Positions 32,464 to 55,654 of a stretch of DNA of 64,000 nucleotides are shown here, piece after piece. The position numbers and the translations under genes are program-made. The notes below the pieces were generated by a model. It was not told the DNA's origin. It saw only the letters and a program-made list of their open reading frames with translations, and ran no database searches. The stretch lies in assembly GCA_001872605.1 (NCBI GenBank), contig MNXM01000306.1, forward strand, positions 6,291-70,290. The letters run 5' to 3'. This DNA is from Armatimonadetes bacterium CG2_30_59_28. GTDB taxonomy: Bacteria; Armatimonadota; Abditibacteriia; CG2-30-59-28. Each line of letters starts with the position of its first letter. Position 1 is the stretch's first letter.

Positions 32464-32490
32464 GTTACGGTTCCTCGTCGGAGAGCTCTC

Positions 32491-42572: not shown

Positions 42573-42588
42573 CGGGGTAGGAGCTGCA

Positions 42589-43986
42589 TCAAAGGCATGG
42601 CGGTATGGGGTGGGTGCCGATCGGCGCCAAATCGTGACCTTCCAGGAATCGCACAAACTCCAATAGCAGGTAATCATTGAAACGTCTGGAAACCACCTGC
42701 GCGCCGAAGGGCAACCCGTGCGGGCCCGCGAATACCGGAAGACTAATGGCCGGAACCCCGCAGAGCGTCCAGACGAGGCACGCGTCCGGCCGATCGACGG
42801 AATCCAGACCCCGCAGTGGTTCTCCTCCGGTTGACAGACCCAGCACAACGTCGCAATGATCGCAGAGAAGATAATCGAGCTCGCGAGCCAATTGATTCTG
42901 CCGGTCAAGGGCGTTCTTGTACTGATCCAACGAGATTCCATTGCCTCTCTCAATGATCTCATACATGATGCCACTGATAAGGGTTCGCTCTTTGAACTCC
43001 TCCTTGAAGTAGTACGCAAGCGTACGGTCATAGATGATGGAGTGGACTTCGTGTGCTTCGCTGAAGGATGGTGGGAGATCACGATAGTCAACAACAATGT
43101 CGTCGAGTTGACTGAGTTGGTCTGCGTAGCGCAGGAGGGATTTTTGCGCGTATTTCTCAGCACAATCCCACTTCGGCCCCCTGACTACGGCCACTCGCCA
43201 AGGGCGGTCTCCCTTGGTCCGCCGCGCCGGATCACTGAACGCCGCGTTGCTGATCGGATAATCCGGGCCGTGCACCCGGATCGCCTCGAACATCAGGGAG
43301 AGATCATCGACGTTCCGCGCGAAGAAACCCACCGTGTCCAGAGAATCCGTGGTCTTCAGCATCCCGGTGCGGGGAATGAGTCCGAAAGAGGGCTTGAAGC
43401 CATAGATCCCGCAGTAGCTTGCGGGGCGAATCGTCGATCCGGCGGTCTGCGTTCCGAGCGCCAACGGCGTCATGTACGCCGCCACGGCCGCCGCTGAGCC
43501 ACTGGAGGATGTCCCCGGCATATACTCCGGGTTGTGTGGGTTTTTCGTGGGACCGGGCGTGTGAACTGCAAATTCCGCCGTAACCGTTTTCCCAAGAACG
43601 ACTCCACCAGCCATGCGGCAACTATGGACCACTCGGGCATCGTTTCCTGGCTGGAAATCCTTCCAGATCGGACTTCCCATTTGCGTGGGTAAGTCTCTCG
43701 TGTTGAAGATGTCCTTGACACCAATGGGGATGCCGCCTAACACGCCCACGCCCTCGCCGGTCCGCAGCCTTTCGTCCACACTCTCTGCCTGTTGTAGAGC
43801 CAGACTCGAATTGATGTGTGACCAGGCATTGATAGACCCATCCCATTGGTCTATGCGGTCGAGACACGCCCGCACATAGTCACGCGCGCTCAGTTCCCCT
43901 GCTCGAATGCGACCGGAGGCTTCCGTTGCACTGAAGAGTACAGGCTTGTCATTCATTCGTTGTGCCGCTCCACGGGTATCCGTCAA
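42589..43986 (-). CDS. amidase-signature family amidase (GatA-like)
   Basis: Amidase signature 'GGSSSGSAAAVAAYMTPLALGTQTAGS'; Ser-cisSer-Lys triad context. Confidence 0.75.
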   Translation of the reverse strand: MTDTRGAAQRMNDKPVLFSATEASGRIRAGELSARDYVRACLDRIDQWDGSINAWSHINSSLALQQAESVDERLRTGEGVGVLGGIPIGVKDIFNTRDLPTQMGSPIWKDFQPGNDARVVHSCRMAGGVVLGKTVTAEFAVHTPGPTKNPHNPEYMPGTSSSGSAAAVAAYMTPLALGTQTAGSTIRPASYCGIYGFKPSFGLIPRTGMLKTTDSLDTVGFFARNVDDLSLMFEAIRVHGPDYPISNAAFSDPARRTKGDRPWRVAVVRGPKWDCAEKYAQKSLLRYADQLSQLDDIVVDYRDLPPSFSEAHEVHSIIYDRTLAYYFKEEFKERTLISGIMYEIIERGNGISLDQYKNALDRQNQLARELDYLLCDHCDVVLGLSTGGEPLRGLDSVDRPDACLVWTLCGVPAISLPVFAGPHGLPFGAQVVSRRFNDYLLLEFVRFLEGHDLAPIGTHPIPPCL

Positions 43987-43994
43987 GTCGCCTT

Positions 43995-45155
43995 CTACGC
44001 GACCGGTTCGTGAGTTCGGCGGTATCCTTCCACTGCTTCCACGAACTGTTGCTCCGTCAGGGCCGGGATTGCCAATTTCCTGCGATGCTCAGCCATCACG
44101 GCCTCAAATTCGTCTTCGGTTAATCCGGTAATTTCGAGGTAGTAGTCCAGAGCGGGAGGTCGTTCCGAGTCATGCTTCTTTGCCATCTCAAAGGCCTCGT
44201 CGCGCGTCATCAATCCCGCGCGAACGTCGGCACTGGCATGATCGGTGCCGCGACCAAAGCCCCTCTTCAGAAACTTCGTGTAGTCATGCACCCCGGCCAT
44301 ACGACATTCCACGCTTTTGTAGCGTTTGTAGCTTCCCTCAACATGATCCTCCCGCCACCCGTAAACATCCCGGACGAATTCCATCTGGCGCTCGTCGTCC
44401 CAGAAGATGTAATCGCCGAGGTGGATACCGATGACTCCCACTTTCTCCAGCTCCTCGACGGAAGGCAGCTTGAATCCAGCGAGATCTCGCAGGGGTATCT
44501 CATCGCAAGCCATTTGTTCCGGGTAGAGCTTCGCGGATACCTGGGTGAAGTAGTCCCGGTCGAACCGTCGCACGGGGTCGTAGTGGGTGGCGCGTCCGGA
44601 AGCCTCGGCAATGGATTCCCCCCAGACGATCAGCGGGATATGGTATTTTACAGCGATCTGCAGCGGAAACGCCCCAACGCCCTGGTGACAATGCCAGCAC
44701 GCGTCGCCGATGGTGAACAGCGATCGCCGCGCCAGCCTGTTCACCAGACCCCGGCTCGGAGTGAATATGATGTGATCCACATCGAATTTCTCCAGAGCGT
44801 TCTGAAGGTTGTATTTTCCCGCATCGCTGAACCAATTGTGGCTGAAAGTAACCGCCAATGGTTTCATGTGGTAAACTTTGGTGAGAACGTGAAGCTGAAA
44901 GGTGCTGTCCTTTCCGCCGCTAATCGGGACCAGGCAATCATAATCATTCCCCAGGCTCTTGTGATGGTCAAGAATCTCACGGAGCTTCTCCTCACGCGAA
45001 GTCCAGTCGATGTGAATCTTCTGCTCAGACGACTGGCACGCTTGGCAGATGCCCATCTCATCAAACTTGATTCCTTCGTTTGACTCCGGCATGCAGCAGC
45101 GGGTGCAGTAGTGCATATCCCGGAACATCGGTTGGCCGTAATCAGGACTCGACAT
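43995..45155 (-). CDS. N-acetyl sugar amidotransferase (PP-loop ATPase; PseA/WbuX/WbpG-like)
   Basis: PP-loop 'LVPISGGKDSTF'; N-terminal zinc-ribbon CxxC...CxxC; ~386 aa as in the LPS/Pse amidotransferases. Confidence 0.7.
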   Translation of the reverse strand: MSSPDYGQPMFRDMHYCTRCCMPESNEGIKFDEMGICQACQSSEQKIHIDWTSREEKLREILDHHKSLGNDYDCLVPISGGKDSTFQLHVLTKVYHMKPLAVTFSHNWFSDAGKYNLQNALEKFDVDHIIFTPSRGLVNRLARRSLFTIGDACWHCHQGVGAFPLQIAVKYHIPLIVWGESIAEASGRATHYDPVRRFDRDYFTQVSAKLYPEQMACDEIPLRDLAGFKLPSVEELEKVGVIGIHLGDYIFWDDERQMEFVRDVYGWREDHVEGSYKRYKSVECRMAGVHDYTKFLKRGFGRGTDHASADVRAGLMTRDEAFEMAKKHDSERPPALDYYLEITGLTEDEFEAVMAEHRRKLAIPALTEQQFVEAVEGYRRTHEPVA

Positions 45156-45167
45156 CGTGCTTACTCC

Positions 45168-45734
45168 TTACGCCGTTCCTTCGCCTTGCCAGTGAGCTGC
45201 ATATTCGTTTCCAAGTACGCCAAACTCAAGGATGTCCACGTAGCGGCCGTCCTTGAAAGCTGCCTCGCGTCGGCGTCCTTCTTCCCTCATGCCGAGGTAC
45301 AGGGCCAGACGCTGCATGGTCTCATTGTCCTCAAACGTGCCGCAGTGAACCCGATGGAGGTTGAGAGCATTGAACCCGTGGTCCAGCAGAAGTCGTGCAG
45401 CATCCCTACCGTACCCGTTCCCCCACGCAGTCCTGTCTCCAATCAGAATGGCGAACTCGGCCGACCGGTTCACCCAGTTGATCTCCTGAAGAGCGATATT
45501 GCCGACGTGCCGGTCATCCTCCCGTAGCACGATGGCAAGGACGACGCAATCACGAGACTGCGCAACGCGTCGGACATGCTCAACCGCAGCACCCACGCCA
45601 TACGGGAAGGTGTGATGCGAGTTTCCGCGGCATACTTCCTCATCGTTGAACCACGATGGGTACGGCCCATCACAGTCGCTTTCGCAAAGGGGACGCAGGT
45701 AAACTCTCTCGCCGATGAGAAATGGATTGATCAT
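45168..45734 (-). CDS. GNAT family N-acetyltransferase (PseH/RimL-like)
   Basis: 'HVGNIALQEINWVNRSAEFAILIGDRTAWGNGYGRDAARLL' acetyl-CoA binding motif A. Confidence 0.75.
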   Translation of the reverse strand: MINPFLIGERVYLRPLCESDCDGPYPSWFNDEEVCRGNSHHTFPYGVGAAVEHVRRVAQSRDCVVLAIVLREDDRHVGNIALQEINWVNRSAEFAILIGDRTAWGNGYGRDAARLLLDHGFNALNLHRVHCGTFEDNETMQRLALYLGMREEGRRREAAFKDGRYVDILEFGVLGNEYAAHWQGEGTA

Positions 45735-45746
45735 CTGTCGCCTCCT

Positions 45747-47024
45747 TCAATCCTGCAGTTCGTGCGTGTGCTCAAGCACCTTATCGATGCCTGTGACAAC
45801 ATCCTCCAAATCCTTCGCGGCCAGGCTGGCGTGAACCAAATCCGTAAACATCAGTTCCTCGAGATACATCCGCTCCGTGACCGGGCAAATGCCTTTCTCA
45901 TAGTTCACATTGCCCTCATAGTAGGGTGGCGTAAAGGGACAACCGTTCGCGCCATAGCCGGTGCGACTTTGGTACATGGGTTCCAGATAGATGGGTTTCA
46001 TGTAGCCTTTGTACATCGGGATGCCCTCGGCGTTGAGAGCTTCCACAAAGCGGTCACGGTGCACACCCAGCGCCTGCGCGTCGTAACGGATCGCGAATTC
46101 GTAATAGCCGTGCCGCACGCAGTCCCTGACGACGGGTGGCGTGATACCCCGCAGGTGCTTCAGCCTGTCTCTCAGGAAATCAGCAGCTTCGATGCGCGGG
46201 AGCAGCAACCTCTCCAGCTTTTTCAGTTGCTCCGATGCGATGGCTGCCTCCACTTCTGTCATCCGGTAGTTGAACCCAATCAGATTCGAGATGTCGTCAA
46301 CGCCCTTGTTCCCTACCACTACTTCGCCGTGGTTGCGGATGAGTTGCAGCCGTTCGGCGAACCGGTCGTCGTTGGTGACGACCACGCCACCCTCGCCGCA
46401 TTGTATGGTTTTGTGGCAGTTGAGGCTGAAAACGCCGATATGGGCCAGCGTGCCGGCGAACCGGCCATGGTATTGAGCTCCCGGTGCCTGGGCCGCATCC
46501 TCGATCACGACCAGGTTGTGCTCTGCTGCGAGCGCCATGATTCCATCGAAGTCTGCGGGGTGGCCAAACAGGTCCACCGTAATAATCGCTTTGGTACGAG
46601 GCGACAGCACCTGCCGAATGGTCTCCGGTGTGATACAGAAGGTTTCCGGGTCGATGTCCGCGAAGACGGGCACGGCGTTGTACATTAGCGCGCCGGTCGC
46701 GGAGGCGGTCATCGTGTAGGGAGAGACAATAACCTCATCACCCGGACTGACCCCCGCCGCGCCCACCGCGGCATACAGACCGGACGTCGCGGAGTTCACG
46801 CTAACGGCGTGCCTGACGCCGAAGTACTCTTCCCACTCTCGTTCCAGCTTCCGTACCCTCGGCCCGCCATAGAATTGTGGCGACCAAGTGCCGAGGTAGC
46901 CGGAGAGGACACCGGTGTCCAGCACCTCCATGACGGCACGTTTCTCTTCCTCGCCGATGGTGACGTACCGCGGGAACGGATCGGCTCGCACCGGCTTCCC
47001 GCCACAGAGTGCAAGTTTGGCCAT
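45747..47024 (-). CDS. DegT/DnrJ/EryC1/StrS family sugar aminotransferase
   Basis: 'SATSGLYAAVGAAGVSPGDEVIV'; 'FSLNCHKTIQCGEGG' PLP-Lys; 425 aa. Confidence 0.8.
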   Translation of the reverse strand: MAKLALCGGKPVRADPFPRYVTIGEEEKRAVMEVLDTGVLSGYLGTWSPQFYGGPRVRKLEREWEEYFGVRHAVSVNSATSGLYAAVGAAGVSPGDEVIVSPYTMTASATGALMYNAVPVFADIDPETFCITPETIRQVLSPRTKAIITVDLFGHPADFDGIMALAAEHNLVVIEDAAQAPGAQYHGRFAGTLAHIGVFSLNCHKTIQCGEGGVVVTNDDRFAERLQLIRNHGEVVVGNKGVDDISNLIGFNYRMTEVEAAIASEQLKKLERLLLPRIEAADFLRDRLKHLRGITPPVVRDCVRHGYYEFAIRYDAQALGVHRDRFVEALNAEGIPMYKGYMKPIYLEPMYQSRTGYGANGCPFTPPYYEGNVNYEKGICPVTERMYLEELMFTDLVHASLAAKDLEDVVTGIDKVLEHTHELQD

Positions 47025-47026
47025 CG

Positions 47027-48178
47027 TTAGTGCGCCATTCCATCACAGGTTGAGATCGAGAATACCATTTGGCAGATCAAGTCGACGACGCGACTCGTCG
47101 CGAGGCCGTCTGTCTTGAGGTTCTCGAGGTTCTTCCGCATGGCCGCGCGCGTCTGCTCATTCAGCAGCAGGTTTTCTGTCACGGCCTCAATTTCCTCGGC
47201 AGCATACACCGGACGACTGTAGTCGGAACGGTTGGTGGGCAGCATGTCCGGGCGACGCAAACCAGGCTGCAGACTCAGCGTGACGCAACCAAGATAGCAT
47301 GTCTCGACCAGCAATTCGGTGTTCATGCCGACCACGAGGTCGGCCGCGAGGGCGACGGCGCGCGCTTCACCGTTCGTGGAGACCACAACCGCCACGCGCT
47401 CCCCCTTCATCTCCGTGTATTTGCCCGCGGGTTCGCGAGGGTGAGGTCTGACCGCCAAAACGACTCTGCGCCCGTCCCTCGTTGCGATGCTGTCGAGCGC
47501 ATCCACGAGCATTCTGACCACGCTCTCTTCCGTATACCCCAGGTAGTTGGGATGAGCGGGATCGTCTCCATATAGTTCGGCCAGAGGCTGTGACGCAAAG
47601 AGCACCAGAAGGTCCTCCGGTCCTGCGCCAAGCTGTCGGCGTATGGCCGTTCCAGTCATTTCAGAAAAATTCCTGCGCCACCAGACTAAGTCATCAAACG
47701 CTGGCTGCCCCGTAATCTCCAGCAGGGAGGGAGGAAAGCCTTCCGCAATCATCTCCTCCCGCGCCACTTCGTCCATCACCGCGATTCGGTTAGGCAGATA
47801 GGAGAGGTTACCCTCAGCATCGCTGAATCGTCGGGTGTAGTTCGACCAGAAATCCAGGAGGGCCAGTGAGGCTGTACCCAGTTCGCGCGCCGCGGCGATG
47901 AAGCGCTTCTCCAACTCGACGTCGTTGCATGAGGTGCCCGTGAGTAGAAACGATGCAGTCGCGTTCTCGAGTAACTCTTGCGCGTCCTCGACGGACGTGG
48001 TGTCTAACAACCGCTCATGGGCCCAGCCACGTTTTTCCCAAATGGAGCACGCTTCACGGTAGCCGAACAGTTGCAGCCGCACGACTCCGTGCCACCGGAG
48101 CGCCTGCAACACGGGCAGAACAGCGTTCGCCCCACCGGGATCTCCGCAGACGACAGCGACCGTTGGTGGGTCAGACAT
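47027..48178 (-). CDS. GT-B fold MurG/PseG-like protein (possible UDP-sugar hydrolase of the nonulosonic-acid pathway)
   Basis: N-terminal 'VAVVCGDPGGANAVLPVLQAL' resembles the G-rich loop of GT28/PseG; position between aminotransferase and deacetylase. Confidence 0.35.
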   Translation of the reverse strand: MSDPPTVAVVCGDPGGANAVLPVLQALRWHGVVRLQLFGYREACSIWEKRGWAHERLLDTTSVEDAQELLENATASFLLTGTSCNDVELEKRFIAAARELGTASLALLDFWSNYTRRFSDAEGNLSYLPNRIAVMDEVAREEMIAEGFPPSLLEITGQPAFDDLVWWRRNFSEMTGTAIRRQLGAGPEDLLVLFASQPLAELYGDDPAHPNYLGYTEESVVRMLVDALDSIATRDGRRVVLAVRPHPREPAGKYTEMKGERVAVVVSTNGEARAVALAADLVVGMNTELLVETCYLGCVTLSLQPGLRRPDMLPTNRSDYSRPVYAAEEIEAVTENLLLNEQTRAAMRKNLENLKTDGLATSRVVDLICQMVFSISTCDGMAH

Positions 48179-48863
48179 GAGTGGCTCGCACCCAGCGAAT
48201 CAATTCAAAAGCCTCCGCTGCATCCAGCCCCGACGCGCTGCCCCAACGTCGGGCTTGGGCGCGGATGGACTGCGGCGATCTGGGATGTGGGAAGTCCCGG
48301 GACTCGCTTTCATACACGGCCATTGCCTGGATTTTGGCGTCAAGCGTCGATGCCACATCGACGAACACATTCGGCTTGAAAGCCGGAGCGAAGCTATCGA
48401 AAGCCCACTCGGTGGAGGAGGGGACCTCGTATGCGTACACCGCCTCAACTGTGCAGCCTCGCACGGGACGCGTCGCGGTTAGCGTTGCCCGGAAGGTGAT
48501 CACGTGGTCGATGTTCAGGTCGCCACCGTGCTGCGTGTAAATCACGCGCGGCTGCACACGATCAACCACCGCTTCGATTAGTTTCACAATCTCCAGAAGG
48601 GGCACCGTGTCGAACCGGTTATCGGGAAGATCGTGGATGATCACATTCTGCACGCCAAGCAACTGATTGGTGCTTCGGGCGTTGGCGTGGAGATCTTCGA
48701 GTAGCGCTCCCTCCGCTTCGCTGCGGTTCGCGTAGCGGGATGTCAGCCCCTCACCGAGAATGACAACGTGAACGTCTTCCCCCGCTGCTGTCAGGCGCGC
48801 CATGGTTCCCCCGCATCCGAGGACTTCGTCATCAGGATGTGCGGCGATAATCAGTGTGCTCAT
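48171..48863 (-). CDS. PIG-L/LmbE family N-acetylglucosaminyl deacetylase
   Basis: 'IIAAHPDDEVLGCGGT' zinc-binding motif; 'HGGDLNIDH'. Confidence 0.8.
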   Translation of the reverse strand: MSTLIIAAHPDDEVLGCGGTMARLTAAGEDVHVVILGEGLTSRYANRSEAEGALLEDLHANARSTNQLLGVQNVIIHDLPDNRFDTVPLLEIVKLIEAVVDRVQPRVIYTQHGGDLNIDHVITFRATLTATRPVRGCTVEAVYAYEVPSSTEWAFDSFAPAFKPNVFVDVASTLDAKIQAMAVYESESRDFPHPRSPQSIRAQARRWGSASGLDAAEAFELIRWVRATHV

Positions 48864-49555
48864 TCTGGTCCCTCGGTGGGAGTGATAGTGACATCGGCTT
48901 CAATGCGGCCGTCCAGTAGGGCGGCGCGGTGGAACTCGTACCGAAAACCCGCGTGCTCCAGGAAAGCGCGAGGATAGCCATCGGCATCCAGCATGCGGAT
49001 GAAATCGTGCAGGCGCAGGAGGTTGTTTCCCGGCCCAATCCGGCTCTCATCCGGTGTCCTCCGGGCGAAGGCGACCCCCTCGCCTTCTTGCGGCAGTGGT
49101 TGCGGGTTATGCTCGATGATCTTGCGGATCATCAAAGCCGACAGCCGTGTTGCCCGAATGTAGATTTCCTCGGCGTTACCTTCCAGCGACAGACCTTCCT
49201 TCATGTACACCGGGCCCGCGTCCATTTCAGGAACCATGCGGAGCGCAGTTAGCTTCGTCGAGCGGTGTCCCCGTATGATCAGATTCTGCAACGGACTGCC
49301 GCCGCGTCCGTACGGCACATCCGTCATGTGGAAACAAACACACTCGTAATTCGAGGCAATTTCCTCCGGCACTTTCCATGACCAGTGAAGAAAGAAAACA
49401 TACCGTGGGTTCAGGAGACGCACGGCATCGATTGTGAGTTCTTCAAGCTGTGCGACGAACTCCCATTCACCGGGGTAGGACGAGATCGCTTCGTCAAAGC
49501 ACCGTCGATTCCAGGGCTTGCACCCCGCCACGAGATAAGTTCCTTGCGCAGCCAT
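48860..49555 (-). CDS. formyltransferase-like protein (Fmt/PurN fold)
   Basis: 'CFHMTDVPYGRGGSPLQNLI' (cf. HxSLLPxxRG) and 'TALRMVPEMDAGPVY' (cf. hxxxxxlDxGxI). Confidence 0.5.
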   Translation of the reverse strand: MAAQGTYLVAGCKPWNRRCFDEAISSYPGEWEFVAQLEELTIDAVRLLNPRYVFFLHWSWKVPEEIASNYECVCFHMTDVPYGRGGSPLQNLIIRGHRSTKLTALRMVPEMDAGPVYMKEGLSLEGNAEEIYIRATRLSALMIRKIIEHNPQPLPQEGEGVAFARRTPDESRIGPGNNLLRLHDFIRMLDADGYPRAFLEHAGFRYEFHRAALLDGRIEADVTITPTEGPE

Positions 49556-49557
49556 GA

Positions 49558-50631
49558 TTACTCTGTTTTACCCCCGATCAGGGTCCAACTCAACGGGGTG
49601 CCGCGTGGGGTGTTGCGACTCGCCTTCCGCCCAATCACGTCGTCGAGGTGTCGTGTGTGAAGTCCCACGCCGGGACGTATTGAGCGCACATTATCAAGTG
49701 TGAATGGGTCCCCGGCCTTCATGTCCTGAACGACAAAGAGCGATCGGCGGAAGATGCGACTGCTGACCTCGCGCTCCTGCAAGCCGTAGTTCACCCTCCC
49801 CAATGCCTTCTCGACCGTGCGAATCGACTGCACGATCTCCTTCATCTCCTGCGGTTCGACCGAGAAGGCGCTATCCGGTCCCGTGTCCTTCCGAGAGAGG
49901 GTAAAGTGTTTCTCGACCACACACGCCCCTACGGCCACCGCTGCAGCGGGAACCGCTGTGCCGAGAGTGTGATCGGACAGCCCGACCGGAACGCCGAACG
50001 CGTCAGCCAAGTGAGGCATCGTCCGCAGGTGCATTGCCTCCGGAGGCGCGGGATACGCGCTCGTGCACTTCAGCAGGAGAAGTTGTTCACACCCCGCCTC
50101 CCGGAGTGTGCACACCGACTCGTCAATCTCCGCGAGGGTCGCCATGCCCGTTGACAATATCGCGGGCTTTCCGGTGGAAGCTACCTTCCGCAGCAGCGGC
50201 AGGTCCGTGTTTTCAAAAGAGGCGATCTTGTGTACCCCCACGCCTATCTTCTCGAGAAAGTCGACTGCCGTGCTATCGAACGCAGTGGAGAAACAGTCGA
50301 TGCCGACCTCGTCCGCAACCTGTTTAAGCTTCGGCTGCCACTCCCACGGGGTGAACGCCTCCTTGTAGAGATCGTGCAGGACACGCCCTTGCCAGATCGT
50401 TCCCTTGATTCGGAAAGGCTCGTCGTCGCAGTCGATGGTCATCGTGTCGGGGGTGTAAGTTTGCAGCTTGATGGCGTCTGCGCCTGCCTCCTTGGCTGCT
50501 CTAACGATCTCGACTGCGCGGTCGAAGTCGTGGTTGTGATTGGCCGACATCTCCGCCACGACGTAGACGGGATATCCCGGACCGATGCGACGACCGTTGA
50601 TTTCGATGAAAGGATGCATTTCAGCGACCAT
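49558..50631 (-). CDS. N-acetylneuraminate/pseudaminate/legionaminate synthase family (NeuB/PseI/LegI) with C-terminal SAF domain
   Basis: 'ADAIKLQTY', 'KIASFENTDLPLL', 'GLSDHTLG', SAF domain; GAGGA RBS before ATG 50631 (track start 50736). Confidence 0.85.
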   Translation of the reverse strand: MVAEMHPFIEINGRRIGPGYPVYVVAEMSANHNHDFDRAVEIVRAAKEAGADAIKLQTYTPDTMTIDCDDEPFRIKGTIWQGRVLHDLYKEAFTPWEWQPKLKQVADEVGIDCFSTAFDSTAVDFLEKIGVGVHKIASFENTDLPLLRKVASTGKPAILSTGMATLAEIDESVCTLREAGCEQLLLLKCTSAYPAPPEAMHLRTMPHLADAFGVPVGLSDHTLGTAVPAAAVAVGACVVEKHFTLSRKDTGPDSAFSVEPQEMKEIVQSIRTVEKALGRVNYGLQEREVSSRIFRRSLFVVQDMKAGDPFTLDNVRSIRPGVGLHTRHLDDVIGRKASRNTPRGTPLSWTLIGGKTE

Positions 50632-51415
50632 CCAGTTGATCCTCGTACAGGAGTTGCAGGCGCAGATAGACTTTCCGTCCATTCTCCACGAAGTACGCGC
50701 CCGCATACGGTGGGAACGTTCGGGCGCGCAGAACATTGATCAATTCCCTCGCCCCGTAACTTCGATCTAAGTCAATAGGGTCTATCGTTTCCACGTCACT
50801 TGTTCGGTGGTGCGTCCTCACTGCATTTTCCTGCTTCGTTCTCGGAGCGTGACCGGTGCGCACCAGCGGCCATGCCTCCCGGAACACATCCAGGCAGCAC
50901 TGTTCCAGTTTGTGGTACAGGGACTCCCCAGTATCCGCCGCTTCCACCGGCACTTCGCGCTGGGCGATAATGTCCCCCGTATCGACCCCCGCGTCGACAT
51001 AGTGCAACGTCGCCCCTGCGGGAGTGCCCTCGATGATGCTCCACACGTTCGGGTATTGCCCCCGGTTGTAGGGAAGAAAAGATGGGTGCAGGTTGATACA
51101 GCCTAACGGAAAAAGCTCGAGGAAGTCGGATTGCAGGATGTAGTTGAACAATACTGAAATGCCGAGGTCTGGCCGCAGCGCGCGAATGCTCTGAAGGACG
51201 GGAGGGCTGTTTAGCTCTGATCCGTCGAACACACATTCGGGCGCCAGTGCAGCAGTCTCGGTGATCTCCGCACCGAACTGCTGCTCGTCTTCCGGATGCA
51301 CCACCAGCCCCACGGTGTTGGCGTTCTCGGACTTCAGGTACTTCAGTATCTCCCAGGCGACACGGTTGTTCCCAAGATAGAGAATGCGCGGACTCATGTT
51401 CTCAGGCGCGCCCAA
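50621..51415 (-). CDS. formyltransferase family protein (Fmt-like, N- and C-terminal domains)
   Basis: 'CINLHPSFLPYNRGQYPNVWSI' and 'ATLHYVDAGVDTGDIIAQ' match formyltransferase catalytic motifs. Confidence 0.65.
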   Translation of the reverse strand: MGAPENMSPRILYLGNNRVAWEILKYLKSENANTVGLVVHPEDEQQFGAEITETAALAPECVFDGSELNSPPVLQSIRALRPDLGISVLFNYILQSDFLELFPLGCINLHPSFLPYNRGQYPNVWSIIEGTPAGATLHYVDAGVDTGDIIAQREVPVEAADTGESLYHKLEQCCLDVFREAWPLVRTGHAPRTKQENAVRTHHRTSDVETIDPIDLDRSYGARELINVLRARTFPPYAGAYFVENGRKVYLRLQLLYEDQLDGR

Positions 51416-52121
51416 AATGCTTCAATAACGCCTCGGCGATGACGAAGTCTACCTCGTCGTGCATGTCGATGGCGAGGTCGTCATCTCGAACAACGACACG
51501 GGTGCCGTCACCGGTAAGTCGATCGTGCTCCATCAGCGTGGCTCGGCTGGAGACGTACACATACCCATCTTCTCGGTAGTCGTGTTGCACCCACTGCCGA
51601 TTGGGGCGGCGAAGGTCGAAATGAGGACTGTACGAGCCATCCTCTTCTCTCCTCCAGATCTTGTAGTTGCGTGTGTCCTGGCACACGGTAACCACGTCAC
51701 AGCCAGTATCGAGGAAAATCTGAATGCACTCGTCGATGCAATCGGCGTCCAACAGCGGCGTCGTGGGCTGCAGGGTGACAACCGCGGACACGGGGAAGGC
51801 GTGCTCTTCTTCCATCATGCGAACGGCGTGTTGCAGCACCGGCACCCAGGGGACGGCGTCTCCGCCCAGCTCATCAGGGCGCCTGAAAGGCACTTCCGCC
51901 CCGCACTCTTTGGCGATGGCTGCAATCTCATCATCATCGGTGGAGACAATAACGCGGTCGAGTAAACGCGCCGTGTGGGCGGTACCGATGATGTAATCGA
52001 TCAATGGTCTGTCCAGCAATGGCCGGATGTTCTTCCGCGGCAATCCCTTCGATCCTCCGCGCGCGGGGATGACGCCAAGGACACCGCCGGCGGAAGAACG
52101 GGCTGGTTGTTCAGTGCTCAT
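51402..52121 (-). CDS. acylneuraminate cytidylyltransferase family (CMP-nonulosonic acid synthetase, NeuA/PseF/LegF-like)
   Basis: 'GVIPARGGSKGLPRKNIRPLLDRPLIDYII' N-terminal CTP-binding motif. Confidence 0.8.
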   Translation of the reverse strand: MSTEQPARSSAGGVLGVIPARGGSKGLPRKNIRPLLDRPLIDYIIGTAHTARLLDRVIVSTDDDEIAAIAKECGAEVPFRRPDELGGDAVPWVPVLQHAVRMMEEEHAFPVSAVVTLQPTTPLLDADCIDECIQIFLDTGCDVVTVCQDTRNYKIWRREEDGSYSPHFDLRRPNRQWVQHDYREDGYVYVSSRATLMEHDRLTGDGTRVVVRDDDLAIDMHDEVDFVIAEALLKHFGRA

Positions 52122-52133
52122 ATTGCAGGCTCC

Positions 52134-53333
52134 TCAATGGGTGCGATGCCGATTCAGGATTTCGCCAACTGTTGTCACAACGCGGTCCACGTCTCCATCC
52201 TGCATCGCCGGGAAGAGCGGCAAGGTGATGATGCGTTCGTAGGCGGCCTCGGCCACGGGACACTGGCCGGGGCGCGTGCCGTAGCGTTCCTGATAGTAGG
52301 GATGCAGGTGAACGGGGATGTAGTGGACGTTGACTCCAATGCCCTTGTTGCGCAGCTCCGCGAAGATGGTCTGTCGGTCCGCTGTGACTCGAGACAAATC
52401 CAGCTGCACGACATACAGATGGTAAGCATGGGACACTTCCGGCGCTACCACGAGTGGTTCCACTTCGGGCACGGACGCAAAGGCTTCGTTGTACCGGGCA
52501 GCGATTGCTTGCCGTCGCCGCACCCACTGCGGCAGCTTGCGAAGCTGGCTGAGGCCCAGCGCGCATTGGAAATCGGTGATGCGGTAGTTGTAGCCGAGGT
52601 CGACCATCTCGTAGAACCAGGAGCCCTGCTGCTCTCTCTGGCGGTGATCGGTGGTGATGCCGTGGTTGCGGAAGGTGCGCGCCCGTGAGGCAAACTTCGG
52701 GTTGCTTGTCGCGACCACGCCCCCCTCCCCTGTCGTTATAGCTTTGACTGGATGGAGGCTGAACGTACTGATATCCGCCAAACTACCCACGGGGCGCCCA
52801 CGATAGCTTCCGCCGAGAGCGTGGCAGGCGTCCGCCACGAGTCGAAGATTGTGCTTCTGGGAAATCGCACTCAGAGCGTCATAGTCGCAGGGCTGGCCCG
52901 CATAGTCCACGGCGATGATGGCTTTCGTTTTTTCCGTTACCCGGCTTGCCACGTCTTCGGCGTCGAGCAGCAGCGTGTGCTCGTCAACATCCGCGACGAC
53001 CGGCGTGCCGCCCTGAAACGCCACGCAGTTTGCGGTCGCTGCAAAGGTGATGGCGGGGATGATGACCTCACCCCCTGCCCCGATGCCGATGGCATACATG
53101 GCGCAGTGCAAAGCCGCAGTGCCGTTGCACACGGCGACCGCGTGGTCGGCGTCCACGAATTCAGCGAAGCGTTGCTCAAACTCAGGAACCTTCGGACCGG
53201 TGGTGAGCCAAGCGGAGCGGAGCGCCGCAACGACAGCGTCGATGTCGTCTTCGTCGATGCACTGACGACCGTAAGGCAATGGTGAGGGATTTTCCGATGT
53301 GTTCTGTTCAGCCACTCGACTACTCCTGATCAA
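52134..53333 (-). CDS. pseC: UDP-4-amino-4,6-dideoxy-N-acetyl-hexosamine transaminase (PseC-type DegT aminotransferase)
   Basis: 'LPYGRQCIDEDDIDAVVAALRSAWLTTGPKVPEFEQ' is the characteristic PseC N-terminus; 'FSLHPVKAITTGEGG' PLP-Lys. Confidence 0.7.
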   Translation of the reverse strand: MIRSSRVAEQNTSENPSPLPYGRQCIDEDDIDAVVAALRSAWLTTGPKVPEFEQRFAEFVDADHAVAVCNGTAALHCAMYAIGIGAGGEVIIPAITFAATANCVAFQGGTPVVADVDEHTLLLDAEDVASRVTEKTKAIIAVDYAGQPCDYDALSAISQKHNLRLVADACHALGGSYRGRPVGSLADISTFSLHPVKAITTGEGGVVATSNPKFASRARTFRNHGITTDHRQREQQGSWFYEMVDLGYNYRITDFQCALGLSQLRKLPQWVRRRQAIAARYNEAFASVPEVEPLVVAPEVSHAYHLYVVQLDLSRVTADRQTIFAELRNKGIGVNVHYIPVHLHPYYQERYGTRPGQCPVAEAAYERIITLPLFPAMQDGDVDRVVTTVGEILNRHRTH

Positions 53334-54312
53334 GAAGCTCTCTCAGCTCCTCCACGCTCAGCCACTCCGTGTTAGCGTCGCTGGTATAGGCAAAGCCTTC
53401 GGGAAGGGGCTTGCTGTCCGGCCATTGGGGTTGCTCCCACCACGGATGGGTGGGAGTCACCACAAATCTGTCCTCAAACTCAAAGGAATTGCGCGCTTCG
53501 TCTTCCGAGATCAATGCCTCGTGCAGTTTCTCTCCCGGTCGGATGCCAATGAACTCGACATCGATGTCGGACGCGATGGCCGCCACCAGGTCCATCATTC
53601 GCATACTGGGTATCTTAGGGACGAAGACTTCACCACCGTGCATCAGCTCGATGCAACGGATGACAAAGTTCACGCCGTAATTCAGCGTTAGCCAGAAGCG
53701 CGTCATACGCTTGTCAGTGACGGTGAGGGTTCCCGTCTCGCGCTGTTTCAGGAACAAAGGAACAACGCTGCCGCGGCTGCCCACCACGTTGCCGTACCGG
53801 CAACAAGAAAGGCGAGTGCCACTTCCTGCCGCGTAGGCATTCCCTTGGATGAACATCTTCTCCGCGCACAGCTTGGTGGCGCCATACAGATTTACGGGGT
53901 TCACTGCTTTATCGGTGCTGATCGCCATGACCTTTTCCACGCCGCAGTCGATGGCGCTTTCGATGACATTCTGTGTGCCGAGAATGTTCGTCTTCACCGC
54001 CTCAAACGGGTTGTATTCACAAGCAGGCACCTGCTTCAGCGCCGCTGCGTGAACAACGATGTCCACTCCGGCCATCGCTCGACGCAACCGCTCTCCGTCT
54101 CGCACGTCGCCGATAAAGTAGCGCAGGTTGGGGCGGTCGAATCCTCCGGTGCGCATCTCGTGCTGTTTCAACTCGTCTCGGCTAAAGACAATGAGTCTCT
54201 TCGGTGAGTGATTCTTCAACTGCGTCGCGATGAATTTTCTCCCGAAAGATCCGGTCCCCCCTGTGACGAGCACCGATTTCTCTGACCAGTTGACACTTTC
54301 AGGCATACTCAT
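53320..54312 (-). CDS. pseB: UDP-N-acetylglucosamine 4,6-dehydratase (PseB/FlaA1/CapD-type, Polysacc_synt_2)
   Basis: 'LVTGGTGSFGRKF', 'IVFSRDELKQHEM', 'HAAALKQVPACEYNPFEAVKTNILGTQNVI', 'STDKAVNPVNLYGATKLCAEKMF', 'YGNVVGSRGSVVPLF'. ATGA overlap with the wzt stop supports a start at 54312. Confidence 0.85.
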   Translation of the reverse strand: MSMPESVNWSEKSVLVTGGTGSFGRKFIATQLKNHSPKRLIVFSRDELKQHEMRTGGFDRPNLRYFIGDVRDGERLRRAMAGVDIVVHAAALKQVPACEYNPFEAVKTNILGTQNVIESAIDCGVEKVMAISTDKAVNPVNLYGATKLCAEKMFIQGNAYAAGSGTRLSCCRYGNVVGSRGSVVPLFLKQRETGTLTVTDKRMTRFWLTLNYGVNFVIRCIELMHGGEVFVPKIPSMRMMDLVAAIASDIDVEFIGIRPGEKLHEALISEDEARNSFEFEDRFVVTPTHPWWEQPQWPDSKPLPEGFAYTSDANTEWLSVEELRELLDQE

Positions 54313-55646
54313 TGGCTCCATCCCTCGGGATTGCGCACCTGTTCGGTTCGCTCGACCTGCCACGGTATGGGGACTGCGATCACGCCACCGCGGTTGGACT
54401 TGGTAACATAGGACAGGAAGGATAGTTCGTCCTTGATCTCAACATAAATCCCTCTCCGGGTATCAATTCGCTCGGGTCCCACAGTTAAGGCCAGTTCGAG
54501 TTCGTAAGTTCCGTGGTTCAGCAGTGGGGTGGGAATCTCGAAGGAAGCGTGGTAACGGCCTGCGCTTCGCGGGAACTGGTCCTGCATGGTTTCGCCAATG
54601 TAGTTGTCCCAGTCTGAGTCTTGGGACACCAGGGCGCGGATGTTCTCTTGCGTCCAGACCTCCACGAACAATATCAAGGTCGGGAAATCCCGATGAAGCT
54701 CAAAATCCATTTCCACCCGGATGGGGTCGAGTACTCCGTGGCGAAGGCACAGGGAACCCGCTGAGTTCAGCACTCTGACCGCGAGGATTTGCCCTTCCAT
54801 CGACTGCCTTTTCTCGTAAACAAATGCGGCATTTTCCGGTTTGGACTCTTCATCCATCGACGCTCTGTAGGCTTCAATCACGGCGGTTGGCTTGCCATCT
54901 CTCCGCAGGGCACCTCCGTCCAGCAGGATCGCTCTATTGCAGAGCGCCTCCACGGCCTTCAGGTTGTGGCTTACGAAAAACACGGTTCGGCCACCCGTTG
55001 CCACCTCTCTCATCTTGCCGAGGCATTTTCGCTGAAAGGACATGTCCCCAACGGAGAGGACTTCATCCACTACCAGGATTTCCGGTTCCAGGTGAGCGGC
55101 GACGGCGAAGGCGAGGCGGACAAACATGCCGCTGGAGTATCGCTTGACCGGAGTATCGAGGAACTTCTGTATTTCGGCAAAACTCACGATCGCGCCGAAG
55201 CGTCGCTCGATTTCCCTCTTCTTCATGCCAAGAATTGCGCCGTTGAGGTAAATGTTCTCTCGTCCCGTTAATTCGGGGTGGAACCCGGTGCCCACTTCGA
55301 GAAGGCTCGCAACGCGTCCTCGGAGTCTGACCTCCCCTTCTGTTGGCTCAGTGATGCGTGAAAGAATCTTGAGCAAGGTGCTCTTACCGGCCCCGTTGCG
55401 GCCAATGACACCGACAACTTCTCCCTGCTCAACCTCGAAAGAAACGCCCTTCAAGGCCCAGATTGTGTCTACGCCAACTCGCTCTTCGTTGCCATTCCGT
55501 GAGCCGCCAAAGCGCGCGGCCAGATTGCGAAACGGTGTTGCCGCAGCATCGACGATCGCTTCACGAATTGTCTTGTAGGGCGCCTCCGCTTTTCCAATGC
55601 GGTAGCGTTTGCCGAGATTCTCAACTTGAATGATGGAGTCTGACAT
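54309..55646 (-). CDS. wzt: polysaccharide ABC transporter ATP-binding protein Wzt with ~170-aa C-terminal beta-sandwich (Wzt_C-like) extension
   Basis: Walker A 'GRNGAGKST', ABC signature 'YSSGMFVRLAFA', Walker B 'ILVVDE'; extra C-terminal domain beyond the NBD. Start at Met 55646 leaves a 9-bp gap to wzm. Confidence 0.85.
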   Translation of the reverse strand: MSDSIIQVENLGKRYRIGKAEAPYKTIREAIVDAAATPFRNLAARFGGSRNGNEERVGVDTIWALKGVSFEVEQGEVVGVIGRNGAGKSTLLKILSRITEPTEGEVRLRGRVASLLEVGTGFHPELTGRENIYLNGAILGMKKREIERRFGAIVSFAEIQKFLDTPVKRYSSGMFVRLAFAVAAHLEPEILVVDEVLSVGDMSFQRKCLGKMREVATGGRTVFFVSHNLKAVEALCNRAILLDGGALRRDGKPTAVIEAYRASMDEESKPENAAFVYEKRQSMEGQILAVRVLNSAGSLCLRHGVLDPIRVEMDFELHRDFPTLILFVEVWTQENIRALVSQDSDWDNYIGETMQDQFPRSAGRYHASFEIPTPLLNHGTYELELALTVGPERIDTRRGIYVEIKDELSFLSYVTKSNRGGVIAVPIPWQVERTEQVRNPEGWSQ

Positions 55647-55654
55647 GGGTTTTA

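Follow-up and report, generated by a model that had tools for sequence, protein, structure and literature searches.

This locus raises the question of what sugar its nucleotide-sugar genes would make and, above all, from where its N-acetyl-sugar amidotransferase (NASAT) would draw ammonia. The window, that is, the whole stretch of DNA that was analyzed, comprises 64,000 nucleotides from Armatimonadetes bacterium CG2_30_59_28. The region studied here (42589–54312) consists of 12 tightly packed genes on the minus strand, which lie within a glycan locus of approximately 40 kb.

Organization of the gene cluster

A previous sequence-only reading had described a pseudaminic acid (Pse)-type cluster with an unusual set of tailoring genes. 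This gene cluster is real: all 12 genes that were listed then were recovered with the same coordinates and strand (Table 1). The genes form one operon-like run with intergenic gaps of −14 to +38 nt. The same gene order is seen in independent assemblies from many metagenome samples, in which the public gene calls match our own; these calls give 330 residues for PseB and a start for PseI that leads to a 357-residue protein. The stop of the exporter gene preceding the region overlaps the start of the PseB gene by 4 nt. The explanation that best accommodates all the data, and which we consider fairly probable, is that the region would provide the nucleotide-sugar branch of a large ABC transporter–dependent surface-glycan operon, with a NASAT that is fed by an amidase.

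Table 1. Genes of the region and its flanks, in order of transcription
Feature	Coordinates	Strand	Profile matches and remarks
Wzm/Wzt-type ABC-2 exporter	54309..56509	(-)	PF01061, PF00005, weak Wzt_C; context, directly upstream, same operon
PseB, inverting UDP-GlcNAc 4,6-dehydratase	53320..54312	(-)	TIGR03589 487 bits (cut-off 408), PF02719
PseC, UDP-4-amino-4,6-dideoxy-L-AltNAc transaminase	52134..53333	(-)	TIGR03588 471 bits (cut-off 423.5), PF01041 426 bits
CMP-sugar cytidylyltransferase, PseF-like	51402..52121	(-)	PF02348 78.8 bits; TIGR03584 (PseF) 128.7
Sugar N-formyltransferase (PseJ/WbtJ/VioF type)	50621..51415	(-)	PF00551 + PF18216; candidate PseH replacement
PseI, pseudaminic acid synthase with SAF domain	49558..50631	(-)	TIGR03586 476 bits (cut-off 340), PF03102 + PF08666
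FmtL, formyltransferase-fold protein	48860..49555	(-)	PF21553 only
PIG-L/LmbE-family N-deacetylase	48171..48863	(-)	PF02585 93.5 bits
GT-B protein, UDP-GlcNAc 2-epimerase-like fold	47027..48178	(-)	Weak PF02350, TIGR04396; invariant HP motif
DegT2, second DegT-family aminotransferase	45747..47024	(-)	PF01041 319 bits; conserved-cassette member
GNAT (Acetyltransf_3) N-acetyltransferase	45168..45734	(-)	PF13302 83 bits; cassette member
NASAT (WbuX/WbpG/PseA family), PP-loop ATP pyrophosphatase	43995..45155	(-)	TIGR03573 332 bits (cut-off 203)
Amidase-signature enzyme	42589..43956	(-)	PF01425 260 bits; proposed ammonia-generating NASAT partner
KpsS/KpsC-like (Capsule_synth) protein	40875..42527	(-)	PF05159 23.6 bits; candidate nonulosonic-acid transferase

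The Pse-type pathway and its predicted N-substituents

The curated NCBIfam cut-offs are passed by PseB, PseC, PseI, and the NASAT. As proposed earlier, the dehydratase belongs to the PseB equivalog and the synthase to the PseI equivalog, and neither to those for NeuAc: the synthase scores 476 bits with the PseI profile and 314 bits with that of NeuB (cut-off 400), and a tblastn search of the 64-kb window returned no NeuC. The cytidylyltransferase is PseF-like and stays below the PseF equivalog cut-off (205.7). The earlier claim of a complete Pse-like core is borne out for PseB, PseC, and PseI, but not for the PseG and PseH steps, since neither a canonical PseG nor a canonical PseH was found within the 64 kb by HMM or tblastn searches. 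The proteins that had been assigned to these steps are not canonical PseG or PseH. The GT-B protein, taken to be PseG-like, has no match to the PseG HMM, and the best 50 matches of its AF2 model (pLDDT 94.7) in a Foldseek search of the PDB are all UDP-GlcNAc-type 2-epimerases (TM 0.6–0.7). The GNAT, taken to be PseH-like, reaches 36 bits with the PseH HMM (cut-off 93), and related loci have a true PseH besides.

Judging from HMM membership, PseB and PseC would convert UDP-GlcNAc to UDP-4-amino-4,6-dideoxy-L-AltNAc, PseI would condense the released hexose with PEP, and the PseF-like enzyme would add CMP. Either the GT-B protein, with its 2-epimerase fold, or a gene beyond the window may supply the PseG step. 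The 4-amino group is probably acylated by the PseJ-like formyltransferase instead of PseH, which would yield a 7-N-formyl group, and FmtL, PIG-L, DegT2, and GNAT are putative further tailoring enzymes. The predicted product is a CMP-activated pseudaminic acid–type nonulosonic acid bearing nonstandard N-substituents. Compared with the canonical PseB-C-H-G-I-F pathway of C. jejuni and H. pylori, which leads to CMP-Pse5Ac7Ac, the locus lacks PseG and PseH and has seven additional tailoring genes (FmtL, PIG-L, GT-B, DegT2, GNAT, NASAT, and amidase). That pathway has a PseJ variant that makes Pse5Ac7Fo (PMC11040635), and a PseJ-like enzyme is present here.

The N-formyl group predicted by the sequence-only reading is supported by this PseJ-like enzyme. 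The best solved match of this formyltransferase is PseJ (6ci2/6ci4, 104 bits), followed by 4nv1, and both the N-x-H motif (INLHPS, residue 107) and the Asp (VDTGDII, residue 144) are present. The order of this formyltransferase (FmtN) then PseI also occurs in two Chthoniobacter loci (L002 and L009). FmtL, of which the best solved match is 1zgh (213 bits), has a Cys in place of the catalytic Asn (VCFHMT at residue 73), with His and Asp retained. FmtL and PIG-L are a widespread pair beside NeuB/PseI, and PIG-L follows FmtL in all outside contexts that were read (n = 3).

A conserved cassette within the cluster

GT-B, DegT2, and GNAT are part of a mobile cassette, comprising genes for an SpsF-like CTP-transferase, a Gfo-Idh-MocA protein, GT-B, DegT, GNAT, NASAT, and amidase, that occurs as one conserved block in different phyla. 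DegT2, which scores only 235 with the PseC HMM (cut-off 423) and has 8gyh, perosamine synthetase, KdnA, and BtrR as its best solved matches, accompanies the NASAT–amidase pair in 58 loci; the GNAT gene is immediately upstream of the NASAT gene in 57. The RPHPRE motif of the GT-B protein (residues 244–249) is invariant, or nearly so, over 45 homologues. Because the three cassette proteins co-occur with true PseG and PseH in other genomes, it is unsafe to assign them to the Pse core.

There is a modest chance that DegT2, GNAT, GT-B, NASAT, and amidase form a separate pathway outside the Pse core, which would make a second sugar, one possibility being an acetamidino 2,4-diamino-hexose derived from the PseB keto-intermediate, or would modify a further position of the CMP-sugar. 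Conservation of the whole cassette across phyla is consistent with such autonomy, as are its neighbors, which in L001 are a complete canonical Pse set, including PseG and PseH, and in L003 a NeuC/NeuB-type set. In other genomes, the cassette further encodes a cytidylyltransferase and a Gfo/Idh/MocA oxidoreductase, so that the activated nonulosonic acid could acquire an additional N-function, and Moorena has a CTP_transf_3–aminotransferase fusion. The family make-up also parallels routes consisting of an oxidoreductase, aminotransferase, acetyltransferase, 2-epimerase, and amidotransferase, such as WbpB/E/D/I/G. The window, however, has neither an oxidoreductase nor a second cytidylyltransferase; it has a single nonulosonate synthase and a single CMP-transferase, and the cassette and Pse genes are interleaved in one operon.

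Since canonical PseG and PseH are missing from the window, the backbone itself might not be strictly Pse. It could be another 5,7-diamino nonulosonate stereoisomer, with a hydrolyzing 2-epimerase-like enzyme replacing PseG, but we regard this as unlikely. The fold of the GT-B protein is that of UDP-GlcNAc 2-epimerase, a superfamily that includes NeuC/LegG, and the opposite C4 stereochemistry could come from the second aminotransferase, DegT2. On the other hand, PseB, PseC, and PseI all pass Pse-specific equivalog cut-offs, PseG could be located beyond the 64-kb window, and the GT-B protein also carries an HP motif, which is typical of transferases.

The amidase as putative ammonia donor of the NASAT

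The PP-loop enzyme adjacent to the amidase is a bona fide NASAT, as had been proposed. Besides its family score (Table 1), it has the PP-loop SGGKDS at residue 79 and a tetracysteine motif (C17/C20/C37/C40), and it matches the solved NASAT 8WEX (E = 5.6e-39). It would adenylate the N-acetyl carbonyl oxygen and swap in ammonia, so that an acetamidino group results. Its substrate is likely the CMP-sugar, the stage at which Campylobacter PseA and PtmG are reported to act (PMC5378307, PMC13317340, PMC11040635).

Since the NASAT and the amidase themselves were used to find the loci for comparison, the counts describe the NASAT–amidase clade only: with the amidase as the starting point, a NASAT (56–79% identical) lies directly upstream on the same strand in 73 of the 74 genome loci that had sufficient upstream DNA, and, with the NASAT as the starting point, the amidase is directly downstream in 69 of 72 metagenome loci picked by NASAT similarity, none of which has HisH/HisF. 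The genome loci come from many bacterial phyla as well as from CPR and archaea, and the carriers include the cultured Massilia sp. Root351 and Root418 and Pseudoduganella sp. UC29_71. The median gap between NASAT stop and amidase start is 2 nt, with overlap in 28 of 75 pairs. HisH/HisF homologues were found neither in the window nor in 77 of 80 loci; in the other three they lie beside a second NASAT paralogue (29–35% identity). The earlier statement that NASATs of LPS systems usually partner HisH/HisF-like proteins holds for other, distant NASATs, among which those 31–36% identical to the one here have hisH/hisF or wbuZ in the downstream slot and another has a GATase/HisF-like pair. Amidase-linked NASATs constitute one clade (pairwise identity at least 52%), to which HisH/HisF-linked NASATs are at most 43% identical. 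Single-chain NASAT–amidase fusions of 874 to 1181 residues occur in at least five clusters, from several independent assemblies, and were verified on DNA in two loci (L171 and L172); in other NASATs, the fusion partner is a class I GATase or a HisF-like domain.

The WbuX/WbuY/WbuZ system of E. coli O145, WbpG with HisH2/HisF2 in P. aeruginosa O5, and MMP1081–1083 of Methanococcus maripaludis likewise combine a PP-loop, tetracysteine NASAT for sugar acetamidino groups with an adjoining, at times fused, dedicated gene for ammonia supply. There, the partners are a class I glutaminase and a HisF-like barrel, whereas the partner here is a single amidase-signature protein. PseA and PtmG (Campylobacter; CMP-Pse5Ac7Am and CMP-Leg5Am7Ac amidine synthases) are NASAT-family enzymes inside Pse/Leg clusters, too; they are not known to have an adjacent ammonia-generating partner. 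An Alistipes NASAT (L084) is comparably partner-less. Free ammonia can evidently suffice, a point against the proposed partnership.

The proposal, already made by the sequence-only reading, that the amidase would be the ammonia donor, taking the place of the usual HisH/HisF-like partners, receives strong support from the reciprocal adjacency of the genes, the occupation of the HisH/HisF position, and the naturally occurring fusions. Encoded immediately downstream of the NASAT, it would cleave a small carboxy-amide donor (glutamine, asparagine, or a malonamate-like compound) via its Ser-cisSer-Lys triad and pass the ammonia to the NASAT within a putative complex, thereby doing what the HisH/HisF-like WbuY/WbuZ do for other NASATs.

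All NCBIfam matches of the amidase are under their cut-offs, including the GatA equivalog (222, cut-off 481). Its best solved match is malonamidase E2 of Bradyrhizobium japonicum (PDB 1ock, 1obi, and others), which aligns along almost the entire length (204 bits), with identical Lys/cis-Ser/Ser positions (K91/S160/S184) and a common Arg (R187) three residues past the nucleophile (GS-x-I-R-PA); triad and Arg are invariant across the family. Malonamidase E2 (414 residues) is a catabolic amidase that stands alone, whereas the amidase here is locked to a NASAT gene and has about 75 extra N-terminal residues, which can be aligned with GatA. The second-best solved relative is GatA, whose match (147 bits) is confined to the N-terminal half of the amidase. 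In GatCAB, this amidase-signature subunit makes ammonia for an ATP-dependent activating subunit; the acceptor here is a PP-loop NASAT, not GatB, and the C-terminal half, which in GatA binds glutamine, does not align. Being nearer to malonamidase E2 than to GatA, the amidase gives no indication of glutamine use. The AF2 model obtained for the amidase was of too low a quality for use.

It seems improbable that the amidase is instead a hydrolase with the sugar itself as its substrate, for instance by N-acyl removal or trimming of an amide-linked substituent, and accompanies the NASAT for the sole reason that both modify one nonulosonic acid. Amidase-signature enzymes do cleave many kinds of amides, with malonamidase, peptide amidase, urethanases, and ClbL all among the best solved matches. 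A nonulosonic acid could be bound via its C1 carboxylate by Arg187, and the remaining cassette genes co-evolve with the pair, too (r 0.76 to 0.85). A sugar hydrolase would, however, leave unexplained why the amidase occupies the exact HisH/HisF slot of other NASAT systems, why HisH/HisF are absent wherever it occurs, and why one-chain fusions parallel NASAT–GATase and HisF–NASAT; in addition, the PIG-L deacetylase is already available for de-N-acetylation. The group that a PP-loop enzyme adenylates may be a carboxylate or an amide oxygen, and the clade is at most 43% identical to the other NASATs compared. Still, a reaction like that of asparagine synthetase, in which a carboxylate would become a carboxamide, is very unlikely, as the NASAT scores well over the family cut-off, retains both family signatures, and matches a solved NASAT, and the characterized members WbpG, WbuX, and PseA all make amidines (PMC10607449, PMC11040635).

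We found no paper on the NASAT–amidase pairing, which recurs, at times as a single fused protein, in many bacteria and archaea. In 20 Ignavibacteria/Bacteroidota loci, the amidase gene is adjoined on its downstream side by a KpsS/KpsC-like gene, as it is here, where a CMP-sugar transferase would be expected. The product is a candidate for the enzyme that transfers the activated nonulosonic acid, being likened to KpsS1 (GT118) and KpsS/KpsC (GT107) by a weak Capsule_synth/KpsC-type signature (gathering score 20; Table 1) and an HP motif. The similarity is marginal (family profile against PDB, KpsC match with E = 0.064), and the protein is much larger (550 residues). KpsS1 is a retaining pseudaminyltransferase (PMC12887879).

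Genomic linkage of the amidotransferase and the amidase

The window encodes an N-acetyl sugar amidotransferase (NASAT; WbuX/WbpG/PseA family) next to an amidase, which the sequence-only reading had proposed as the ammonia donor. A scan for the amidase using one genome per species identified 141 relatives, and the best 80 loci were examined. The amidase orthogroup is large and tightly conserved (47–67% identity), and these 80 loci represent Verrucomicrobiota, Chloroflexota, Acidobacteriota, Pseudomonadota, Planctomycetota, and Ignavibacteria/Bacteroidota, as well as Nitrospirota, Bacillota, Melainabacteria, Omnitrophota, CPR lineages, and four archaeal groups. In 73 of the 74 loci that extend far enough upstream, the amidase is immediately preceded, in the same orientation, by a NASAT that is 56–79% identical to that of the window; in the other one, the two are 3 kb apart. 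The distance from the NASAT stop to the amidase start has a median of 2 nt; among 75 pairs, 72 are at most 60 nt apart and 28 overlap. With the NASAT as seed, a metagenome scan gave loci of 62–78% identity, of which 72 with at least 300 nt of downstream sequence were scored. The amidase is directly downstream of the NASAT in 69 of these 72 loci and elsewhere in the locus in two.

The usual ammonia partners of NASATs are HisH- and HisF-like proteins (WbuY/WbuZ). HisH and HisF of E. coli, used as tblastn queries, matched nothing in the window. Homologues were absent from 80 NASAT-seeded metagenome loci and, with the E. coli queries, were detected in only three of the 80 amidase genome loci. These three are from Chthoniobacterales and carry two or three NASAT paralogues each; HisH/HisF adjoin the second or third paralogue (29–35% identity), and the 71–75% identical orthologue is still paired with the amidase. 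Such loci are natural side-by-side controls of partner specificity, with HisF/HisH beside the distant NASATs and the amidase beside the close one. Plasmid-borne NASATs that are 31–36% identical to that of the window have hisH-hisF or wbuZ-hisH immediately downstream, a further locus has the order NASAT-GATase-HisF, and one Alistipes NASAT has no partner. The expectation that NASATs elsewhere partner HisH/HisF-like proteins agrees with what is seen beside distant NASATs. By sequence, the 74 NASATs linked to an amidase cluster together, any two of them sharing at least 52% identity, and the HisH/HisF-linked NASATs share at most 43% identity with this group. Mirror-tree correlation was highest for the NASAT–amidase pair (r = 0.90) but was also high for the other cassette pairs (0.76–0.85), and adds little.

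HMMER, run exhaustively with the NASAT as query, yielded 4947 relatives with long proteins among the top matches, and their architectures were assigned with Pfam. In several proteins, a full amidase domain comes after the NASAT, in some cases with a degenerate second NASAT-like domain in between (see the table), and several contig-truncated proteins of the NASAT–amidase design were also found. In more distant NASATs, the fusion partner is a class I GATase (P0395) or a HisF-like domain (P0397 and P0418). The fusion clusters hold several distinct sequences from independent assemblies. The gene for the 874-residue fusion translates intact on two different assemblies and sits in a nonulosonic acid locus with a DegT/CTP-transferase/Gfo-Idh-MocA/379-aa/GNAT cassette. 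Natural fusions of this kind constitute Rosetta-stone evidence for a joint function of both proteins. To judge from these architectures, evolution treats the amidase as interchangeable with glutaminase and HisF-like partners. Taken with the adjacency in genomes (73/74) and metagenomes (69/72) and the occupation of the HisH/HisF slot, the fusions of 874–1181 residues favor the amidase as the putative ammonia donor of the NASAT, and the comparative evidence for a NASAT–amidase unit is strong and genomic throughout.

The degenerate NASAT-like domain of P0361/P0513 and P0363 lacks the PP-loop and occurs also in P0458 (803 residues), where it is the sole NASAT-like domain; it may act as a scaffold or channel. 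Other NASAT relatives, P0367 and P0370 (about 600 residues) and P0380 (600 residues), have some 230 residues fused at the N terminus, and the extension of P0380 appears to resemble a methyltransferase family that scores as the pseudaminic acid (Pse)-associated methylase TIGR03587 in related loci.

A search of the literature on amidases with NASAT, WbuX, PseA, or nonulosonic acids found no paper linking the two, and papers on the Vibrionaceae, Geobacillus, and Clostridium clusters do not mention the amidase or the two other tailoring proteins described later (FmtL and PIG-L). No NCBIfam model names the amidase clade of the window.

Positions of features in the window and in comparison loci from other genomes or assemblies (L numbers), and lengths of fused NASAT-family proteins (P numbers)
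Feature	Sequence	Positions or length	Strand
Amidase	window	42589-43956	-
NASAT	window	43995-45155	-
GNAT	window	45168-45734	
DegT2 (second DegT aminotransferase)	window	45747-47024	
GT-B protein	window	47027-48178	
PIG-L deacetylase	window	48171-48863	
FmtL (formyltransferase-fold protein)	window	48860-49555	
FmtN (PseJ-like formyltransferase)	window	50621-51415	
PseC	window	52134-53333	
Wzm/Wzt ABC-2 exporter	window	55655-56509 and 54309-55646	-
Second nucleotide-sugar branch (GDP-mannose 4,6-dehydratase, methyltransferase, and third DegT aminotransferase; perosamine-like); also a sulfotransferase-domain protein	window	30615-34062 and 36408-37349	-
714-aa ORF	window	38037-40181	-
500-aa protein	window	39376-40878	-
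762-aa ORF	window	40875-43163	-
1029-aa protein	window	56797-59886	-
FmtL + PIG-L pair	window	48171-49555	
FmtL + PIG-L pair	L085	9001-10379	
FmtL + PIG-L pair	L086	9001-10385	
FmtL + PIG-L pair	L087	3085-4469	
719-aa cytidylyltransferase-aminotransferase fusion	L085 (Moorena producens JHB)	5326-7485	
Seven-gene cassette	L003	4086-11371	
Seven-gene cassette	L007	3341-11377	
Seven-gene cassette	L062	4051-13021	
Seven-gene cassette	L001	4840-11353	
Seven-gene cassette	L171	8001-16506	
Chthoniobacterales NASAT paralogues	L002	14969-17533	
Chthoniobacterales NASAT paralogues	L013	9561-11573 and 16658-17260	
Chthoniobacterales NASAT paralogues	L015	1371-3158 and 12248-14840	
NASAT, then full amidase domain	P0365/P0511	874 aa	
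NASAT, degenerate second NASAT-like domain, then amidase	P0361/P0513	1150 aa	
NASAT, degenerate second NASAT-like domain, then amidase	P0363	1181 aa	

Properties of the NASAT and amidase proteins

Membership of the NASAT in its proposed family is well founded (TIGR03573, 331.8 bits versus a cut-off of 203.2). Its PP-loop, SGGKDS at residues 79–84, fits the SGGxDS motif defined for NASATs (PMC10607449), and the Zn-binding tetracysteine pattern CxxC-Xn-[GN]xCxxC is present as C17-x-x-C20 and G35-I-C37-x-x-C40, and these residues are invariant across 13 members of the clade. Residues 27–335 align with the solved NASAT 8WEX (E = 5.6e-39). The only paper on a NASAT structure leaves the source of ammonia unaddressed (PMC10607449), and reviews of the tailoring of pseudaminic and legionaminic acids describe the modifying enzymes as largely unknown (PMC5378307, PMC11040635).

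The amidase had rightly been recognized as an amidase-signature enzyme (PF01425, 260 bits, residues 37–442), and each of its NCBIfam matches falls under the respective cut-off. Its best solved match, near full length, is malonamidase E2 (MAE2; 204 bits). A gap-free alignment pairs K91, S160, and S184 with MAE2 positions 62, 131, and 155, which form the Ser-cisSer-Lys triad, and these three residues of the amidase are invariant in 17 family members. R187, three residues past the nucleophile, is also invariant, and its equivalent in MAE2, Arg158, binds the substrate carboxylate. To judge from the likeness to MAE2 and the invariant R187, the amidase would act on a small amide that has a carboxylate close by. 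Glutamine could be the donor, but the sequence evidence gives no pointer to it. Membership among the GatA-type glutaminases was considered and rejected, since the GatA model TIGR00132 reaches 222 bits, short of its cut-off of 481, and covers residues 28–294 only; GatA chains in the PDB likewise align with the N-terminal half alone (residues ~20–255, at most 147 bits), and the glutamine-binding C-terminal half is unaligned. An AF2 model of the amidase, based on a 17-sequence alignment, was left out of the fold comparison (mean pLDDT of 68, dropping under 50 in the catalytic core).

The pseudaminic acid core and its tailoring genes

Equivalog calls were based on the curated cut-offs of NCBIfam, which PseB, PseC, PseI, and the NASAT/WbuX family pass. 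All twelve genes listed in the sequence-only reading are present, with junctions of -14 to +38 nt, and its complete Pse-like core holds as far as the inverting UDP-GlcNAc 4,6-dehydratase PseB (TIGR03589, 487 bits versus 407.75), the aminotransferase PseC (TIGR03588, 471 versus 423.5), and the synthase PseI (TIGR03586, 476 versus 340.25) are concerned; canonical PseG and PseH were not found in the 64 kb. The PseI protein scores 314 bits with the model for sialic acid NeuB, under the cut-off of 399.65, and tblastn with NeuC from related loci gave nothing significant across the 64 kb. The cytidylyltransferase has a CTP_transf_3 domain, and its best model is PseF (TIGR03584, 128.7 bits, cut-off 205.7). 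No window gene matches the GT28-like PseG model TIGR03590, nor did PseG from two comparison loci (L001 and L068) give a significant tblastn match within the 64 kb; PseH from a related locus, used in the same way, had no match in the window.

Two genes had been read as the missing functions, the GT-B protein as PseG-like and the GNAT as PseH-like, and neither assignment survives. Related loci with true PseB, PseC, and PseI contain canonical PseG (TIGR03590, 230 bits, sometimes fused to PseH) besides the GT-B protein and the GNAT, which are therefore not simply divergent PseG and PseH. The GNAT, an Acetyltransf_3 protein, scores 35.9 bits with the PseH model TIGR03585 (cut-off 93.1), so that membership was rejected; in CG2_30_59_28, it could acetylate the 4-amine. 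The GT-B protein (383 residues) gives no match to the PseG HMM, and its AF2 model (pLDDT of 94.7) has the fold of a 2-epimerase: the top 50 Foldseek hits in the PDB are all UDP-GlcNAc-type 2-epimerases (such as WecB, MnaA, and WbpI-like enzymes; TM-scores of 0.6–0.7). A sequence search of the PDB with this protein returned nothing useful. An R-P-H-P-R-E segment is invariant in the family, HP motifs have been described for nonulosonic acid and sialyl transferases (PMC5420450), and one family member weakly matches the BFO_1060 family of Tannerella transferases for pseudaminic and legionaminic acids. The GT-B protein could be an NDP-sugar hydrolase or 2-epimerase acting in place of PseG, or else a transferase.

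Of the two proteins described as formyltransferase-like, FmtN has both the domains and the catalytic residues of a formyltransferase. It combines Formyl_trans_N (PF00551, 92 bits) with the small C-terminal dimerization domain PF18216 (74 bits) and retains the Asn-His-Asp triad, with N108 and H110 in INLHPS and the Asp in VDTGDII. Its top match in the PDB is the Pse formyltransferase PseJ, the enzyme making Pse5Ac7Fo (as cited in PMC11040635), and FmtN may replace PseH. FmtL matches only PF21553 and the structural genomics entry 1zgh, lacks PF00551, and does not retain the triad, as a Cys takes the position of the catalytic Asn (VCFHMT).

The neighboring PIG-L deacetylase is as previously annotated. 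The FmtL–PIG-L pair is very widespread and highly conserved, with more than 7900 FmtL homologues (65–74% identity among the top matches), and lies between PseG and the NeuB/PseI gene in the three outside contexts examined, Moorena producens JHB and two others. The proximity of a deacetylase to a formyltransferase-fold protein hints that the pair may swap the N5 acyl group of the nonulosonate, exchanging the N-acetyl group that stems from GlcNAc. We found no description of a function for the pair in the literature, and nothing useful in that for 8GYH and 1ZGH.

Clustering of all ORFs of the 80 genome loci revealed a recurrent block in the order SpsF-like CTP-transferase, Gfo/Idh/MocA oxidoreductase, GT-B protein (2-epimerase fold), DegT, GNAT, NASAT, and amidase. 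This seven-gene cassette is conserved across phyla, beside Pse-type or NeuC/NeuB-type gene sets, and is often followed in Ignavibacteria and Bacteroidota by a Capsule_synth-like protein. On an activated nonulosonic acid, the cassette could introduce one more nitrogen function. In the window, the SpsF-like CTP-transferase and the Gfo/Idh/MocA protein are absent, and FmtL and PIG-L stand in their stead. DegT2 scores 235 with the PseC model, under the cut-off of 423.5, and since the window lacks an oxidoreductase that would provide a second keto group, DegT2 may use the PseB product. The cassette and the FmtL–PIG-L pair are two recurrent, uncharacterized tailoring sets. A Pse-type cluster of M. 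producens JHB encodes a 719-residue fusion of a CTP_transf_3 cytidylyltransferase and a class III aminotransferase, which hints at transamination on, or coupled to, a CMP-activated sugar.

Proposed pathway and the surrounding glycan locus

Family assignments show that PseB and PseC convert UDP-GlcNAc to a 4-amino intermediate, which would then receive an N-formyl group through the PseJ-like enzyme or an N-acetyl group through the GNAT. UDP would be released by the GT-B protein or an enzyme encoded elsewhere, after which PseI would condense the sugar with PEP and the cytidylyltransferase would activate the product. The NASAT would adenylate an N-acetyl carbonyl and substitute ammonia delivered by the amidase, yielding an acetamidino group. 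Finally, the Capsule_synth-like protein (or the GT-B protein) would transfer the sugar, with export of the polymer by Wzm/Wzt. We predict that the pathway yields a Pse-type 5,7-diamino nonulosonate bearing acetamidino groups and, probably, N-formyl groups. In flagella, O-antigens, and S-layers, the acetamidino groups of pseudaminic and legionaminic acids shape charge, antigenicity, recognition by phages, and interactions with the host.

The Pse cluster is of an already known type, and the NASAT–amidase pairing is a new version of the design in which a NASAT is combined with an ammonia donor. PP-loop amidotransferases are known with glutaminases of the class I, Ntn, and nitrilase types, and a dedicated amidase partner would be a new type of ammonia-generating module among them. 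The pairing also offers an annotation rule for naming generic "amidase" genes; counted by its amidase, the pair occurs in at least 141 species-level genomes of bacteria, CPR, and archaea. Cultured and tractable carriers (Massilia and Pseudoduganella) and the natural fusions make the system accessible to biochemistry, structure determination, and chemoenzymatic synthesis of acetamidino nonulosonates. A much bolder reading, which we consider improbable, is that the malonamidase-like amidase and this NASAT clade form an undescribed acetamidine synthase with two subunits, sometimes in a single chain, that uses a non-glutamine carboxy-amide donor. A mobile cassette with this enzyme at its core (aminotransferase, GNAT, and GT-B protein, elsewhere also cytidylyltransferase and Gfo/Idh/MocA protein) would equip an activated nonulosonic acid with an extra nitrogen that bears the acetamidino group. 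Were this true, organisms as different as Armatimonadota and methanogens would display nonulosonic acids of a class that has so far been chemically undescribed.

The region 42589–54312 lies within a run of co-directional genes on the minus strand, from ~59886 down to ~17926, that encodes a surface-glycan machine. The locus is not an assembly artefact, because it was independently reassembled in many samples with identical gene order and gene calls, and a chimera was rejected on these grounds. The run includes the Wzm/Wzt exporter, many GT1, GT2, GT4, and GT9 glycosyltransferases, PMT_2 and DUF2079 membrane proteins, a second nucleotide-sugar branch, and a sulfotransferase-domain protein; the product is probably a complex glycan, possibly with sulfate groups. 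The Capsule_synth-like gene, for a candidate KpsS/KpsC-type ulosonic acid transferase, scores 23.6 bits with PF05159 (gathering score 20), and its family profile matches KpsC in the PDB only at E = 0.064. Between this gene and a GT4 gene, a 500-residue protein has a weak C-terminal methyltransferase signature and matches no NCBIfam model. Two ORFs of 762 and 714 residues run far upstream into their neighbors; these long forms are artefacts of GC-rich DNA without in-frame stops, and public gene calls place the true starts at ~42527 and ~39278. At the head of the operon, a 1029-residue protein has PD40/TolB-like β-propeller repeats and, after them, at least four NBR1-type Ig-like domains (PF16158).
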